Source: a phage
Sequence record: PZ000613.1
Reading direction: 5' to 3' (one strand)
Length of the DNA stretch: 64,000 nucleotides
Shown here in pieces: positions 30,640 to 36,247 of this stretch. The notes beneath the pieces are model-generated. The model worked only from the letters and a program-made list of their open reading frames with translations, made no database searches and was not told the DNA's origin. The first letter of the stretch is position 1. Each line of letters opens with the position of its first letter. The position numbers were made by a program, and so were the translations under genes.

Positions 30640-31611
30640 ATGTCAATCTCCACAACGATCGTACCTCTGAATCTTCAACAAGATTTAGGGGAACAGAAGT
30701 TCTTAGGTCGTGGGTGCTTCGGTATTCACAACTACATGCAAGGCCAATGCGTAATTGATATTAATGGCGAAGTTATCACGGAGGAAGGGCGTTATAGACG
30801 CTTCAACCGTGATATCAACTTGCAATTGGAGATGTTGAATTACTGGACTCACTCTTTTCACGGTCATGTTGCATCTGATATTGAAAAGAACCTGGTTGAA
30901 ACAGCAGACATTATGAACTCTATGTCTTGCTATCGTGACGTATTTACAATCACTTCAGCGAATAGTGTAGCTGTCAACCTCCGTGAGCATCCAGCAGATC
31001 AAATCTTCACAGGACTTATGCTCTTTCGTAGTATTCTGGAAGGGCAATATCGTGGAATGGATTTCCTAGCAGAAGGAATTGAAGACAGGGAAGAGTGGCT
31101 GAAGCGTAAACGCATCGGCATCGCTTTAGTGTTAGCTGGGTTGGGTCGTGACTTCTTCGGTGGATGGTCTCAACGAGGAAGAGCCAATGGGAGTAGTGAG
31201 AGCACATCTATTGTTGTCAACAATAATATGTCAGCAGCAGCCTTCCTTCCTTTGGTTGTAGACTCTGATGAATACACGAAGCAAGTATGGGTTCAAAACC
31301 CCTTCGGTGTTGGCGACAACGAGAATGGTTATGTTCGTAACCATAACCAAGATGCCTTACGAAGATTTGCTCGTGCTAAAGATCAATACCCTGGCGAGTA
31401 TGAAACAATGTCAGAGTGGTTAAGACTCTGGTCCAACTGTCATGGTCACAAACGTGAAGCAATAGACAATAAGTTGGAAAACATTACAGTACAAAACTTT
31501 ACAGCCCGACTAATTCAGCGTACTGGAGCAGATTCCGGTCTTACTCTTGAAGAAGTTGGTAACACAATCTCATCTCTCTTTTCTGAACTAGTGGAGTATT
31601 ACAATGACTAA
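30640..31611 (+). CDS. hypothetical protein in the amidoligase cassette (323 aa)
   Basis: ORF overlapping the downstream amidoligase start; no motif recognised. Confidence 0.5.
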   Translation: MSISTTIVPLNLQQDLGEQKFLGRGCFGIHNYMQGQCVIDINGEVITEEGRYRRFNRDINLQLEMLNYWTHSFHGHVASDIEKNLVETADIMNSMSCYRDVFTITSANSVAVNLREHPADQIFTGLMLFRSILEGQYRGMDFLAEGIEDREEWLKRKRIGIALVLAGLGRDFFGGWSQRGRANGSSESTSIVVNNNMSAAAFLPLVVDSDEYTKQVWVQNPFGVGDNENGYVRNHNQDALRRFARAKDQYPGEYETMSEWLRLWSNCHGHKREAIDNKLENITVQNFTARLIQRTGADSGLTLEEVGNTISSLFSELVEYYND

Positions 31612-32410
31612 GCGCAAATTTCTTATCGGCTCTGACCCTGAAATGTTTGTTCGTACTAGCAACGGTATCATCACCTCTGTAGCCGGTTTATTAGGCTGCT
31701 CTAAGGACGATAAGATCGCTCTGGCTAAGGATGTTCGTCTCCAAGAGGACAACGTACTGGCTGAGTTTGATATTGACCCACAGAGCGGTTTTGAAGCGTT
31801 TAACGATAACATGCAACGTGGTATTGATCTCACCAATAATGTCCTGAACAAACTGGACATGGAAACAGCTCCGGGTGTTAGCTCTCACATCTTCACTGAA
31901 GAAGAGATGAAGACTTTCAATGAATCAGCGTTCATCTTCGGATGTACTCCTGACTTCAACGCTTTCACTGGTCAGAAAAACCCATCCCCAACTTCTCAGA
32001 ACAAGGGACTTCGTACTGCCGGTGGTCACGTACACCTTGGTGTGGTTGGTGCTTTGGATATCACTCTTCAAACTCAGATGATGCTTGGCGTGCTGTGTGA
32101 CTACTTCCTGTCACTCCCAGCAGTAATTATGGACAAAGACACTCGCCGTAAAGAACTCTACGGTAAAGCATCTGCAATCCGTTATAAAGACTATGGTATT
32201 GAATACCGTTCGCTGTCTAACTTCTGGATTAGTGATCGTGAAAACCGTAAGTTTGTTTACGATCAGGTTGACAAGGTTGTTCAGCAGTGTGATATGTCTA
32301 CTCTCATGGCATTGCACTCTCGCCTTCCGATTGAGAAGCTTCATGAAATCATTAACGGTAACAACGTTAAAGAAGCGGACCAGCAGATCAAACTCCTTCA
32401 GGTAGCATAA
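31604..32410 (+). CDS. GCS2/amidoligase-type carboxylate-amine ligase (268 aa)
   Basis: N-terminal LIGSDPEMF (acidic E/D motif) and central GGHVHLG (HVH motif), typical of the glutamine-synthetase-like amidoligase fold. Confidence 0.55.
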   Translation: MTKRKFLIGSDPEMFVRTSNGIITSVAGLLGCSKDDKIALAKDVRLQEDNVLAEFDIDPQSGFEAFNDNMQRGIDLTNNVLNKLDMETAPGVSSHIFTEEEMKTFNESAFIFGCTPDFNAFTGQKNPSPTSQNKGLRTAGGHVHLGVVGALDITLQTQMMLGVLCDYFLSLPAVIMDKDTRRKELYGKASAIRYKDYGIEYRSLSNFWISDRENRKFVYDQVDKVVQQCDMSTLMALHSRLPIEKLHEIINGNNVKEADQQIKLLQVA

Positions 32411-32419
32411 GAGGTTATC

Positions 32420-33037
32420 GTGAGCTTAGTAGCTGATTTTTCTCATTACTATAATGGTACATGGATTGCTAAACGAGCAGGTAATATCAACCTTCCATGT
32501 TTTGTGATTGGTGTTGAGCAGAGCGGTAACTTCCGCAGTGATGACTTCTCTCACGAAGCAGAGCAGGCTCTGTACTTTGTTGTAGAGCAGTGGTACAAGA
32601 ATGAGCATGGGAATCTCCGAAACACTACGATGAATATTCCAGTGTTCGACCCAACCTTGATTCTTGAATCACCTGATGTTGGTTATCTGTTCCATAACGG
32701 TAACACTGTAAGCTGGACTCATATCAACCCTGTTCGACAGAGAGCGAAGGGTTTGATGGGTAATAAGATTAGAAACGCTCCGGGGATTGGTCGTTCTATC
32801 TCTGGTGAAATGGTTTACAGTCTGTTCAATCCTGAATTTGATGGATTGGTTACTCGTTATATTTACATCAATCCTACAGATGGTAAAGTGCATTATAAAG
32901 GTGCACTGGTAGGTCAGGTAGATCTGGAAGCACCTCGTGACTCTTACGGTCAACAACCGATGCGACTTCTGGAATATTTTCATCACATCTCTGAAAACCT
33001 TAGCAATTATAATATTACGTTGGTGGATTCGTTATGA
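32420..33037 (+). CDS. hypothetical protein in the amidoligase cassette (205 aa)
   Basis: ORF with ATGA-type overlap to the next gene. Confidence 0.45.
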   Translation: MSLVADFSHYYNGTWIAKRAGNINLPCFVIGVEQSGNFRSDDFSHEAEQALYFVVEQWYKNEHGNLRNTTMNIPVFDPTLILESPDVGYLFHNGNTVSWTHINPVRQRAKGLMGNKIRNAPGIGRSISGEMVYSLFNPEFDGLVTRYIYINPTDGKVHYKGALVGQVDLEAPRDSYGQQPMRLLEYFHHISENLSNYNITLVDSL

Positions 33038-34137
33038 CAACTGTAGCGCAAACTTTTGGATATCGAGAAGGTCGTTTAACTGAGGCGCATAGTTCAATTG
33101 CACTTCAGTGCGGTGTCGGTATTGAACTTGAACTCGAAGGTTCTGAACATATCGAAGCAGATATGTGGGATTGCACAGAGGATGGTTCCCTGCGTAATGG
33201 TTGTGAAATGGTATGTTCACGGCCTTACAATGGACAGGAGTTGTTAGACGCTATCAACAACCTGAGTGAAGCAGTAGCTGAATCGCACGCCGAGGGGACT
33301 TGGCGTTGCTCTACTCACGTTCATATGGATATGAGGGATGCTGATAGTAATATCCTCAAGAAGACCATCCTTGCTTGGACCTTCTATGAAAAGATGCTGT
33401 TCAAGTGTTCAGGCTACCATCGTTACCGTAGCAATTTCTGCCCTGCGTTTGCAGTGGTACAAGCGCAGGTAATGAATGCCTCTGACGCATTTAACTACGA
33501 TGGTGAAGAGTTCTTCAACCGTCTGGTTCGTTCATGGGATAAATATACATCTCTGAACCTTCTGCCACTTGCCCAATACGGTTCAATTGAGTTCCGTATC
33601 AGTGAGCCTAAGTGGAAACGTGGTCAACTTCTCAATCTGGTTAACCGCTTCTTGATGTTGAAGAAGCTGGCTTTAGATAACGCAGACATGAGCAATGATC
33701 AGTTTATCGAGCACTTAAATACTGTACGATTTGCCCCAATGCTTCCTTACCTTCCTCTGGATTACAATCTGGATGAATCGGATTTGCATTCAGGGTATTG
33801 TATGGCCCGTGATGTTTTGTATTGTCGTTCTCATGAAGTAGAACAGTCTGGTCGTATTCGTTTACGTCGAACCAACTCCAACGGAGAGGTTCTTGTTGAC
33901 TTACGTCTTATGTCAGACTTCTACGGATTCCTTGGGTATGTCCGAGGGAACGCTAACAATTTGTACCAAGAGATTCTGGTTATGCTTCGTACAGCAGACC
34001 TATCTCAAGTAAGACACGCTCCAGAACAACGTATCCGTGCTATTTTTGACTTACTTCGTGAGTCAGGTCACAGTGATAACAATATCACAGGGTACATTCC
34101 AGACCATCTGGAAAATCAGTTAGAGCAAGCGCTGTAA
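33034..34137 (+). CDS. second GCS2/amidoligase-type ligase (367 aa)
   Basis: GVGIELELEGSEH (E-x-E motif) and CSTHVHMDM (HVH motif). Confidence 0.55.
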   Translation: MTTVAQTFGYREGRLTEAHSSIALQCGVGIELELEGSEHIEADMWDCTEDGSLRNGCEMVCSRPYNGQELLDAINNLSEAVAESHAEGTWRCSTHVHMDMRDADSNILKKTILAWTFYEKMLFKCSGYHRYRSNFCPAFAVVQAQVMNASDAFNYDGEEFFNRLVRSWDKYTSLNLLPLAQYGSIEFRISEPKWKRGQLLNLVNRFLMLKKLALDNADMSNDQFIEHLNTVRFAPMLPYLPLDYNLDESDLHSGYCMARDVLYCRSHEVEQSGRIRLRRTNSNGEVLVDLRLMSDFYGFLGYVRGNANNLYQEILVMLRTADLSQVRHAPEQRIRAIFDLLRESGHSDNNITGYIPDHLENQLEQAL

Positions 34138-34216
34138 TCAATGGGTGCCTCTGACAAAGGGGCACAATTTAAAGGTTAATTAGATGAAAGGGTTTACCCT
34201 TCAGGTGGATTAGAAA

Positions 34217-36247
34217 ATTTGTGGCATCGTATTAGCTGGCGGTAATCTGTCAAGCACTGATTTAGACGTATTTAACCAACTCTTTTATGCTGGGGTGTTC
34301 CGAGGGCAGCATTCCTCTGGTATCTTCGGTCAGCGTAAAAGCACTAAGGAAGTCTTCACTTATAAAGAAGCTCTTCCTTCTTTCGCATTCATCCTACAAG
34401 ATGAGTACAAGAAGCATACCACTGGTGAAACAGCTTACACTGTAGCACCTTCATGGATTGTTGGTCACAGCCGTCATGCAACGAAAGGTGCAGTTAACGC
34501 CAAGAACGCCCATCCTTTCCAACATGGTAACATCACTCTGGTTCATAACGGAACCTTGATGGACCAAGATCTGTTACCTGACAGCAAAAACTTCGAGGTA
34601 GACAGTGAGAACATCTGCCACTCTATTAACACAATTGGTGCAGCAGAGACTATTCAAAAGCTGGATGGTGCTTTCACTTTAATCTGGCATGATGCTTCTG
34701 ATAACCGCCTTCATATCATCCGTAACGAAGAGCGTCCATTCCACCTCGCACGTTGTAACAGAGATTGGTTTGGTGCTTCTGAAGAAGATATGTTGATGTG
34801 GATTCTGAAGCGTTCTAAGTCTCATAAGAACCGTATTGACGAGCATTTTGAATGTAAAGTTGGTACAGAGTATATCTTTGATATGTCAAACAACGGCATG
34901 ACTTTGGTTGAAGAGGTCGCCCACGAGCTTCCGGTTTTTACGGTAGCCAATCGTTGGGGCAGTTATTACTCGAACAACTACAGCCAAAGCAACTATCAAA
35001 GTTCCTCAAAAAGCAGTACAAGCAATCCTTACGACACGAAGCCGGGAGTGACAGCGGCAGACGTTCGTCGAAGAAACGCAGTGGTAAGTCAAAACAAAAT
35101 CGCAAGCGATCGAAACATTGATATTCGCCGCGATATGACTGTGGAAATCACTCCGCATGAGTTTGTTCCTTATGCAACTGCTGGTGCTGTTCCTTCTCGT
35201 GGTAAGATGATTGGTTATATCTACGATGAGAAATCTCAAGAGTATATCGAAGGGGATGTTCATAACGTAGACATTAAGGCTTATCAGGATGCCCTGAAAG
35301 ACCCTAAAATTGTTTACCGTGGGACAGTATCCTGTATCTCCGAAGTTAATGCTATGGTTCGCTTAGTGATCACAGCAGGTCGTTTTGTTGACCCATCTCT
35401 GGAGAAAAAGGAGCCTGAGTCTACTACTGCTGACTTTGATGATGATATCCCTTTTGACATGAATGATAGTTTCGTCAACAAGAATGGCGTTACTATCACT
35501 CGTAAATTCTGGGAAGCACATTCTCATGGTGATTGTGGTGGTTGTGACAAACACATTGATTGGAAGGATGCACCTAAAGCAGTCTTCGCATATCAGTGCT
35601 ACTGGCATCCTGAATGTCTGGAAGGTTTGACTAAACCTAAAGAGGAAGAAGAGGAGGAGACTCCTATTGGTGTTTGTGAAATCTGTGGTGAAGTTAAAAC
35701 AGAGAATGAGTTCGATGATGAGCTTAGTCGTCTTCGTGGTGAAGATATCTGTAAAGTCTGCGCTGTAGAAGTAAAGAAGAAAGTATCTAATGCTACGATC
35801 AAAGATGGTTATGTCTGGATTAAAGCGACAGATACAACAAACGCCCGTCGTCCTGAGTTTGCTTTACGTGTAACTGAAGACATGATCGGTCGTATGACGG
35901 TATTACCTTCCTCAGCGAAACAGACAGGCATCACTCTGGAGGATGTTGTTGATGCTTATGTTGAGAAACGTAGCAACAGTATTTTTGCAATCTCAACTAA
36001 GCCAAAAAAGGAGGAACCTGCTGAGAAAGCAGGTGTGTTTCCTGAATCACGAACAGCTCTCCGCAAAACTGTTGTCAGCTTCGACGGAAACCGAAGCACT
36101 GACTTCACCAAAGCCATGTGGTCAACCCTCGGATACTGCTCAGAGTGTTTTAAGCAGATTCCGTGGCGCGATGCTGAAAGTTGTACGCTTGGTTCTATGA
36201 ATCAAGTTTATTGTAATTCTCCTAAATGTTCATTGAATAGAGGTTAA
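34217..36247 (+). CDS. class-II (Ntn) glutamine amidotransferase domain protein with Cys-rich C-terminal region; apparent AUU start (about 676 aa)
   Basis: In-frame ATT-TGT-GGC-ATC-GTA right after a TAG gives the canonical GATase-II N-terminus (M)CGIVLAGG; further motifs FRGQHSSGI, GHSRHATKG, NAHPF, HNGTLMD; C-terminal half has paired Cys clusters. The ORF track starts at the internal GTG 34295. Confidence 0.6.
   Translation: MCGIVLAGGNLSSTDLDVFNQLFYAGVFRGQHSSGIFGQRKSTKEVFTYKEALPSFAFILQDEYKKHTTGETAYTVAPSWIVGHSRHATKGAVNAKNAHPFQHGNITLVHNGTLMDQDLLPDSKNFEVDSENICHSINTIGAAETIQKLDGAFTLIWHDASDNRLHIIRNEERPFHLARCNRDWFGASEEDMLMWILKRSKSHKNRIDEHFECKVGTEYIFDMSNNGMTLVEEVAHELPVFTVANRWGSYYSNNYSQSNYQSSSKSSTSNPYDTKPGVTAADVRRRNAVVSQNKIASDRNIDIRRDMTVEITPHEFVPYATAGAVPSRGKMIGYIYDEKSQEYIEGDVHNVDIKAYQDALKDPKIVYRGTVSCISEVNAMVRLVITAGRFVDPSLEKKEPESTTADFDDDIPFDMNDSFVNKNGVTITRKFWEAHSHGDCGGCDKHIDWKDAPKAVFAYQCYWHPECLEGLTKPKEEEEEETPIGVCEICGEVKTENEFDDELSRLRGEDICKVCAVEVKKKVSNATIKDGYVWIKATDTTNARRPEFALRVTEDMIGRMTVLPSSAKQTGITLEDVVDAYVEKRSNSIFAISTKPKKEEPAEKAGVFPESRTALRKTVVSFDGNRSTDFTKAMWSTLGYCSECFKQIPWRDAESCTLGSMNQVYCNSPKCSLNRG

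Follow-up and report, generated by a model that had tools for sequence, protein, structure and literature searches.

Escherichia coli infC and pcnB both start at AUU, a near-cognate codon set in each case in an otherwise ordinary initiation region led by a Shine-Dalgarno (SD) sequence, and these are the only two AUU starts confirmed in the whole of E. coli. In reporters, AUU, AUC and AUA work at about 1-3% of the level of AUG and the product carries methionine (an N-terminal Met was found for AUC), and in vitro AUU mRNAs are sensitive to initiation factor 3 (IF3), to ppGpp and to nutrient status. infC genes are reported to use AUU or AUC, never AUA, and at the thrS-infC junction the upstream stop lies exactly 3 nt before the AUU (UAA-GGU-AUU). 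Here we describe a gene for a predicted glutamine amidotransferase that probably starts at an AUU at position 34217 of a 64,000-nucleotide stretch of phage DNA (record PZ000613.1, referred to as a whole as the window). A first-pass annotation, made from the letters of the window, had proposed this start, adding that AUU is a rare but documented bacterial initiator, as in infC.

The phage locus shares with thrS-infC an upstream stop exactly 3 nt before the AUU (UAG-AAA-AUU), and its family shares with infC genes the use of AUU or AUC without AUA. It differs from infC in that the upstream frame is a mini open reading frame (mini-ORF) of 9 codons, not a full gene, and in that the gene is that of a phage; for the latter, IF3 autoregulation and low expression would be hypothetical. 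Unlike the starts of infC and pcnB, the phage start is pinned by a catalytic Cys that has to stand at position 1. An ATT start has also been described for ebpA of Enterococcus faecalis, where it is reported to attenuate expression and to have been overlooked in annotation in favour of a downstream ATG (PMC4447247). ebpA is a single gene in one species, whereas the phage pattern recurs across a protein family.

The amidotransferase and its probable initiation codon

The region of the window around the gene is 96-98% identical to E. coli podophages of the phiEco32/SU10 type (Kuravirus, Gordonclarkvirinae), and the gene is phi32_83 (phiEco32 gene 83) or SU10_085, by sequence a phage class-II (N-terminal nucleophile, Ntn) glutamine amidotransferase. 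The N-terminal ~250 residues make up a class-II glutaminase domain, matched in a Pfam scan by GATase_6 (55 bits, cut-off 27) and GATase_7 (27.4 bits, cut-off 25), and PHROG 4736 matches the protein with position 2 of the profile on position 2 of the protein. When the N-terminal domain was searched as a single sequence against the PDB sequences, no match was obtained, and a family profile was needed. With a profile built from 27 family members, position 1 (Cys) aligned with residue 1 of the E. coli GlmS glutaminase (1xff, E = 4.7e-19), and the same profile put the Cys on Cys1 of PurF (1ecb, 1ao0). The likeness to GlmS, PurF, AsnB and GltB runs from Cys1 through the Asn-Gly pair to the glutamine-binding Asp: the counterparts of GlmS Arg26, Arg73, Thr76, Asn98-Gly99 and Asp123 are conserved, and the motifs GHxRxAT, HNG and VDSE, which align to GlmS residues, are invariant or nearly so across the family. 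The oxyanion-hole Asn-Gly and the glutamine-binding Arg, Thr and Asp by which a class-II glutaminase is recognised are all present; glutamine hydrolysis and ammonia transfer to an acceptor domain are putative activities. Beyond this domain the phage enzyme parts company with GlmS, PurF and AsnB, as it carries no SIS, phosphoribosyltransferase or asparagine-synthetase acceptor domain. The C-terminal ~430 residues gave no Pfam match and no recognisable acceptor domain in the Pfam scan; a SIS domain was likewise absent from that scan (E <= 0.01), and the PDB profile match spans the glutaminase domain only. Since GlmS is recognised by two C-terminal SIS domains, the product name "L-glutamine-D-fructose-6-phosphate aminotransferase" is not justified for this protein.

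Around the start, a single frame reads TAG (34211-34213), AAA (34214-34216), ATT (34217-34219) and TGT (34220-34222), then GGC ATC GTA TTA GCT GGC; its translation around the ATT is K-I-C-G-I-V-L-A-G and it remains open until 36247. These are the codons that the first-pass annotation had read. The in-frame TAG and the Cys codon are separated by just two codons, AAA and ATT, of which ATT alone is near-cognate to AUG. As the first canonical start in this frame the first-pass annotation named the GTG at 34295, in agreement with the mechanical list of open reading frames (34295..36247). Of the SD claimed for the ATT, the GGTGGA element is indeed there, but the spacing of about 8 nt needs correction, the real gap being 7 nt (TTAGAAA). 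Also overlooked was the mini-ORF, whose frame, opened by the ATG at 34184, is the one that the TAG at 34211-34213 closes.

Several lines of evidence support the AUU, by comparison rather than by experiment. Firstly, in relatives at 50-65% identity the Cys follows an ATG (ATG-TGY, MCGIVLAG); these include the Proteus phages J3S/Privateer, Cronobacter A24, Vibrio Vp_R1, Salmonella SE131, Aeromonas 4_4572 and several IMG/VR and metagenome contigs, and their alignments set Ile1 of the window beneath Met1. The earlier concern that homologues might lack the CGIV segment did not materialise. Secondly, the 25 codons from the ATT to the GTG at 34295 (codons 2-26) vary at 6, 4 and 19 sites at codon positions 1, 2 and 3, respectively, and are under coding constraint. 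The GTG itself is shared by the window with just two near-identical contigs, other relatives having GTA, GTC or GTT, and SU10 offers no further canonical start in this frame until codon 114/115, past the catalytic Asn-Gly. Thirdly, a 55-nt block that contains the ATT is identical in 97 independent phage records, which speaks against the sequencing error that the first-pass annotation had thought might hide an upstream ATG. Fourthly, as described below, ATT and ATC recur at the same place across the family. The AUU thus occupies the position of the homologous AUG, with no canonical in-frame start available and with an SD at functional spacing. Every comparative check that the first-pass annotation had suggested favours the AUU, and our overall estimate is a probability of roughly 0.85 that translation of the amidotransferase is initiated at AUU 34217.

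Several points weigh against this conclusion. In the literature searched we found no N-terminal peptide, toeprint or start-site profiling for AUU 34217, and the supplementary tables of the SU10 study contain no start-codon or peptide information. The SU10 amidotransferase was detected by mass spectrometry (9 peptides, 23.7% coverage), but the proteomics table gives no peptide positions and lists an expected mass of 63.8 kDa, that of a truncated model (PMC4281155). This table and the sequence record disagree: 63.8 kDa is the product from the ATG at codon 115, while the GenBank coding sequence (CDS), which runs from the ATT, corresponds to 76.2 kDa. AUU alone usually yields only a few percent of the activity of AUG, and the Kuravirus SD is centrally mismatched (GGUGGA, -5.9 kcal/mol) and weaker than those of the other ATT/ATC lineages. 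The predicted leader fold is no more stable than those of shuffled sequences (z = 0.1 for 68 nt; z = -1.6, also not unusual, for 123 nt), and the leader, being invariant, shows almost no covariation. Finally, translation control may not be the whole reason for the invariance of the block, to which a promoter-like element or a protein-binding site, for instance, could contribute.

Probable ATT and ATC starts across the phage family

The family was surveyed with scans anchored ~100 residues downstream of the start ([KR]NAHPFxHG, HNGTL), which avoids start-codon bias. Viral, metagenomic and annotated loci were gathered, giving 114 unique sequences in ~84 lineages at 70% identity (individual loci are given L numbers); the metagenome scan used a narrower alignment, the broad 27-sequence alignment being too diverse. 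A scan of one genome per bacterial species returned almost solely phage-like fragments, together with unrelated myxobacterial partial matches. It therefore supplied no cellular control set, and points to an amidotransferase subfamily that is, in essence, confined to phages.

The codon before the Cys is ATG in 81 of the 114 sequences, ATT in 16, ATC in 5, TTG in 8 and GTG in 3, and never ATA. In the remaining one (L066, IMG/VR 3300025276_000050, ~595-606) it is itself a Cys codon, with the ATG one codon further up (Met-Cys-Cys-Gly); an extra Cys before the conserved CG is odd for an enzyme that needs its Cys at position 1. Counted by lineage, ATT or ATC is found in about 12 of the ~84, roughly one in seven: the Kuravirus clade, Aeromonas phage BUCT695, L169, a Zobellviridae-like group (L035-37), Pseudomonas phage O4, and L054, L110, L122, L123, L137, L143 and L160. 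In nine of these 12, the stretch from the upstream stop to the Cys offers no canonical start in frame. The closest neighbours of ATT/ATC members often have ATG, as in the pair L137 (ATC) and L034 (ATG), which are 83% identical, and Fitch parsimony on a neighbour-joining tree requires 12 changes of start-codon state. Merging lineages with homologous leaders, we arrive at a conservative count of at least 8 independent ATT/ATC lineages. ATA is found in none of the 12 ATT/ATC-type lineages, although ATG to ATA is a transitional change. No description of this family-wide pattern was found in the literature searched.

The sequences upstream of these codons also set the ATT/ATC lineages apart. A GGAGG core SD is found in 8 of 11 ATT/ATC lineages versus 3 of 63 ATG lineages (Fisher p = 1.6e-6), SD duplex energies differ between the two groups (Mann-Whitney p = 6e-4), and the exact arrangement of GGA, 7 nt and ATY is present in 12 of 14. 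Compensation of a weak codon predicts such strong SDs, which therefore provide independent support for ATT and ATC as starts. Most of the other ATT/ATC lineages also have a hairpin, of unrelated sequence, ending 0-3 nt before the SD. Median fold energy over the 30 nt upstream is -6 kcal/mol for ATT/ATC lineages and -0.8 for ATG lineages (p = 2e-5), a difference that persists where the intergenic gap is at least 30 nt (-6.1 versus -0.6, n = 11 and 19, p = 7e-5). The strong SDs beside ATT and ATC are more suggestive of compensation or regulation than of expression simply being turned down. The hairpin 5' of the SD could stabilise the 5' end, present the SD or bind a factor; in reporter work, hairpins just 5' of an SD were mildly inhibitory. 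Members that start with TTG or GTG tend likewise to have strong SDs and adjacent hairpins (L142, L136 and L168, for example).

The leader and possible routes to the AUU

The features of the start region and the neighbouring genes are collected in the table.

Table. Features of the amidotransferase locus, in window coordinates.
Feature	Position	Strand	Basis or remark
Inferred initiation codon ATT, decoded as formylmethionine (fMet)	34217..34219	+	Aligns with ATG of homologues; invariant in 97 records
Catalytic Cys codon TGT, Cys1 of the mature Ntn amidotransferase	34220..34222	+	Invariant in family alignments
Shine-Dalgarno-like AGGTGGA, 7 nt 5' of ATT	34203..34209	+	Read from sequence
Leader mini-ORF MKGFTLQVD*, in frame with the amidotransferase	34184..34213	+	Stop 3 nt before ATT
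Small hairpin AAGGG-TTTA-CCCTT, ending 1-2 nt before the SD	34188..34201	+	Seen in predicted folds
Invariant 55-nt leader block (mini-ORF, hairpin, SD, TAG, ATT, Cys codon)	34170..34224	+	Alignment
Full amidotransferase CDS, 676 residues, ~76 kDa	34217..36247	+	Translation; mass computed on the SU10 orthologue
GTG (Val27), first canonical in-frame start, rejected as the real start	34295..34297	+	Not conserved
Stem-loop GTGCCTCT-GACAA-AGGGGCAC, after the amidoligase stop	34145..34165	+	Minimum-free-energy and centroid folds
Amidoligase_2 protein	33034-34137		Neighbour in cluster
phiEco32-type COOH-NH2 ligase	31604-32410		Neighbour in cluster
ATP-grasp enzyme	36691-37887		Neighbour in cluster

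The 97 phage records carry the leader block without a single change (100% identity), and 2 Aeromonas phage records match it at 91%. In 13 distinct Gordonclarkvirinae sequences from three genera it forms the longest invariant run (55 nt, the next being 14 nt); over the CDS these sequences are as little as 75% identical in nucleotides, and in the part adjacent to the block just 24% of third codon positions are invariant. Aeromonas phage BUCT695 (Grimontviridae, L162), whose protein is 49% identical, has the same leader with three changes: in the motif 5' of the mini-ORF, in the hairpin loop (TTTA to TTAA) and in the SD (GGTGGA to GGCGGA). Its mini-ORF is kept as MKGLTLQAD*. In L169, whose protein is 60% identical, the ATG of the mini-ORF is replaced by CTG, while the hairpin (AAGGGA-TTTA-TCCCTT, with one extra A:T pair), the SD and the ATT are retained; the SD is stronger (GGAGAGGA) and tandem stops, TAG TAA, stand directly 5' of the ATT. 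Judged by these three lineages, hairpin, SD and ATT are the constant core, and the mini-ORF is an optional part that is found where the SD is weakest.

Two further observations concern the letters around the ATT. The ATT-TGT junction creates a canonical UUG (A-UUG-U) that overlaps the AUU one base downstream and opens an out-of-frame ORF of 8 codons in frame +1 (34218-34244; TTG TGG CAT CGT ATT AGC TGG CGG TAA); ATG-TGY members of the family likewise hold an overlapping GUG. In addition, the SD-spacer-start string of L123 (metagenome Ga0102925_1009287, 370-410), CAGGAGGATTAGAAAATTTGTGGC, nearly equals that of the window (34202-34225), CAGGTGGATTAGAAAATTTGTGGC. The two proteins are ~41% identical and L123 has no mini-ORF; the likeness of the strings could be due to convergence or to an ancient shared leader.

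How ribosomes would reach the AUU is less clear than the codon itself. The mini-ORF (ATG AAA GGG TTT ACC CTT CAG GTG GAT TAG, 34184-34213) is in frame with the amidotransferase, its AUG is preceded by AAAGG and its stop lies 3 nt 5' of the AUU, so that initiation might proceed mainly by translation of the mini-ORF from AUG 34184, termination at UAG 34211-34213 and re-initiation 3 nt on, the SD serving only to hold the ribosome. This would be a variant of initiation at the AUU, and we rate it, like a substantial share for re-initiation in general, as less likely than not. In its favour, the mini-ORF is retained in all Gordonclarkvirinae and persists in BUCT695 with two non-disruptive changes. 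The weakest SDs (GGUGGA and GGCGGA, with an anti-SD duplex energy of -5.9 kcal/mol for AGGTGGA) occur in the two clades with a mini-ORF, the SD of L169, which lacks its AUG, being stronger. Moreover, in reporter work on UAA-GGU-AUU, re-initiation and de novo initiation contributed about equally. However, L169 retains hairpin, SD, TAG and ATT without the AUG, a comparable mini-ORF is absent from about nine other ATT/ATC lineages, and the mini-ORF offers no synonymous variation with which to assess selection on the peptide.

A further consideration is that the AUG of the BUCT695 mini-ORF may merely mark the 5' end of the mRNA, since a gp36-type AATGTA motif would place the transcription start on it or next to it. 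A motif TTTAAATGTAA(A/T) lies just 5' of the amidotransferase gene in Grimontviridae-type relatives (L162, 880-960; L014, L015, L006 and L016, before their ATG). It matches the AATGTA element, centred at -11.5, of the phiEco32 gp36 (phage sigma factor) promoters, and the 5' untranslated region that it implies is very short; in BUCT695, this gp36-type motif would put the transcript start at about the ATG of the mini-ORF. The Kuravirus counterpart, AAAGGTTAA (34168-34183), has two mismatches, yet is invariant, and no second copy of it occurs in the window. Elsewhere in the window the leader motif TTAAAGGTTAATTAG does not recur (with up to 3 mismatches, 5 matches against 2.9 expected), and the gp36-type motif TAATGTATA is not enriched; these results therefore give no support for a Kuravirus promoter family at the leader. 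A scan for sigma-70 promoters and terminators around the leader returned one minus-strand promoter at chance level and no terminator, and Rfam gave only a sub-threshold chance match on the leader (astro_FSE, 16 bits versus a gathering score of 70). A switch in which alternative pairing of GGUUUACC and GGUGGAUU would mask the SD was also considered and was dropped, the pairing being broken in BUCT695.

A start further downstream would give a product without the nucleophile and with some role other than that of a glutaminase. Most deposited annotations use such a start (GTG 34295; ATG at codon 11 in Suseptimavirus; TTG/ATG at codon 114/115 in SU10 and Paul), and the SU10 proteomics table carries the corresponding 63.8-kDa model (PMC4281155). 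We regard it as very improbable. The position of the downstream start varies among phages and GTG 34295 is not conserved, while codons 2-26 (2-113 in SU10) are under purifying selection, with the Cys, Arg, Asn-Gly and Asp invariant. The downstream starts in the annotations can be ascribed to gene-callers that disallow ATT.

Cys1 can also be exposed by a different route, that of the Ntn enzymes with a propeptide, Bacillus subtilis PurF and glutamate synthase. B. subtilis PurF autocatalytically removes an 11-residue propeptide, and the mature residue numbering is visible for 1ao0/1gph. Since the mini-ORF shares the frame of the amidotransferase, an arrangement preserved in BUCT695, translation from AUG 34184 with read-through of the UAG would yield a 12-residue propeptide of similar length (MKGFTLQVD-X-K-I), which might be self-cleaved. 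This, too, is very improbable. Unlike in the propeptide enzymes, a stop separates the mini-ORF from the Cys, and ordinary E. coli hosts are without amber suppressors, natural read-through of UAG being very low. In L169, TAG TAA precedes the ATT and an upstream AUG is missing; in the other ATT/ATC lineages a stop closes the frame 1-14 codons upstream, without any in-frame start; and relatives with ATG-Cys show that a propeptide is not needed in this family. Lastly, an error of sequencing or assembly, or a decaying pseudogene, for which nothing speaks beyond the rarity of ATT starts, is already effectively refuted by the identity of the sequence in 97 independently sequenced phages and several metagenome contigs, by an intact 676-codon ORF with strong codon-position asymmetry and by the detection of the SU10 protein by mass spectrometry.

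Initiation at AUU 34217 therefore remains the reading that we prefer, and from the anatomy, homology, coding constraint, conservation and recurrence observed here we infer how it might proceed. AGGUGGA, 7 nt upstream, would position the 30S subunit at the AUU, which would be read by the initiator fMet-tRNA. Methionine aminopeptidase removes a Met that precedes Cys; deformylase and this enzyme would then strip the fMet, because the next residue, Cys, is small, and the Cys1 nucleophile would be exposed. The N-terminal peptide to be expected is CGIVLAGGNLSSTDLD, with or without Met. Since the nucleophile has to stand first, the start position is immovable, which would leave the choice of start codon and its ribosome-binding context as the only means of tuning expression. 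The AUU may be reached in two ways, by direct SD-led initiation and, in analogy to thrS-infC, by re-initiation once a ribosome has finished the mini-ORF. According to the first-pass annotation, AUU might keep enzyme levels low. The known behaviour of AUU mRNAs towards IF3, ppGpp and nutrient status, if shared by this gene, offers an alternative: expression that is conditional rather than merely low.

Annotation, gene neighbourhood and meaning

The ATT start is not new as an annotation; it adds to the known AUU-initiated genes. The records of phiEco32 (EU330206 / NC_010324, 2008), SU10 (KM044272) and Bas86 start the CDS at this ATT, and in LAMP and other BASEL records a CDS overlaps the 55-nt block. 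Among the 60 matches listed, of which 54 are annotated, 14 of the 54 cover the block with a CDS, while 40 leave it unannotated and start at various downstream codons. No paper discussing this ATT start was found in the literature searched, which did not take in the phiEco32 genome paper, the transcription paper or the Iyer/Aravind amidoligase paper. The CDS is truncated at its 5' end by 10 to 114 codons, with loss of the catalytic Cys, in NC_031274 (Pseudomonas phage O4, where the RefSeq CDS lacks 37 codons), NC_070977 (BUCT695), Paul, EP335, ECBP2, 4E8, 101114UKE3, 172-1 and ~40 others, because the true start is ATT or ATC; many of these records name the protein GlmS despite the absence of a SIS domain. 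About three quarters of the deposited Kuravirus-type records encode a protein without its catalytic Cys, in some cases minus half of the catalytic domain, and gene-callers that forbid ATT and ATC starts will repeat the truncation.

The phage subfamily differs from the other class-II enzymes also in its setting, a cluster of genes for an amidoligase, a COOH-NH2 ligase and an ATP-grasp enzyme (Table), which also holds several small or unknown ORFs. The stem-loop at 34145-34165, directly 3' of the stop of the amidoligase gene (33034-34137), is preserved in relatives, with 4 pairs changed on both sides (for example GGGCGCTC...GGGCGC in ECBP2). It is labelled "terminator" in two related records; it has no U-tract, the terminator scan makes no call, and it looks like a terminator or an RNA-stability hairpin. 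Within the amidotransferase, the C-terminal third (window ~35500-36247) holds three zinc-ribbon-like CxxC...CxxC motifs, CGGC...CYWHPEC, CEICG...CKVC and CSEC...CNSPKC.

The wider interest of the locus lies in the recurrence of ATT and ATC with a near-perfect SD and a hairpin, in the infC-like junction of the Kuravirus clade and in the many truncated database entries. Confirmed AUU and AUC starts are extremely rare, and a family whose N-terminus is chemically pinned constitutes a natural experiment on what makes near-cognate initiation work and why it persists. Tentatively, hairpin, near-perfect GGAGGA, 7-nt spacer, AUU or AUC and UGY may together form a selected module that has evolved repeatedly and that ties synthesis of the enzyme to the IF3, ppGpp and nutrient state of the host, with Kuravirus/Libingvirus having possibly exchanged part of the strength of the SD for an infC-like re-initiation junction. 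For these phages, the dosage or timing of the amidoligase/ATP-grasp/amidotransferase cluster seems to matter.

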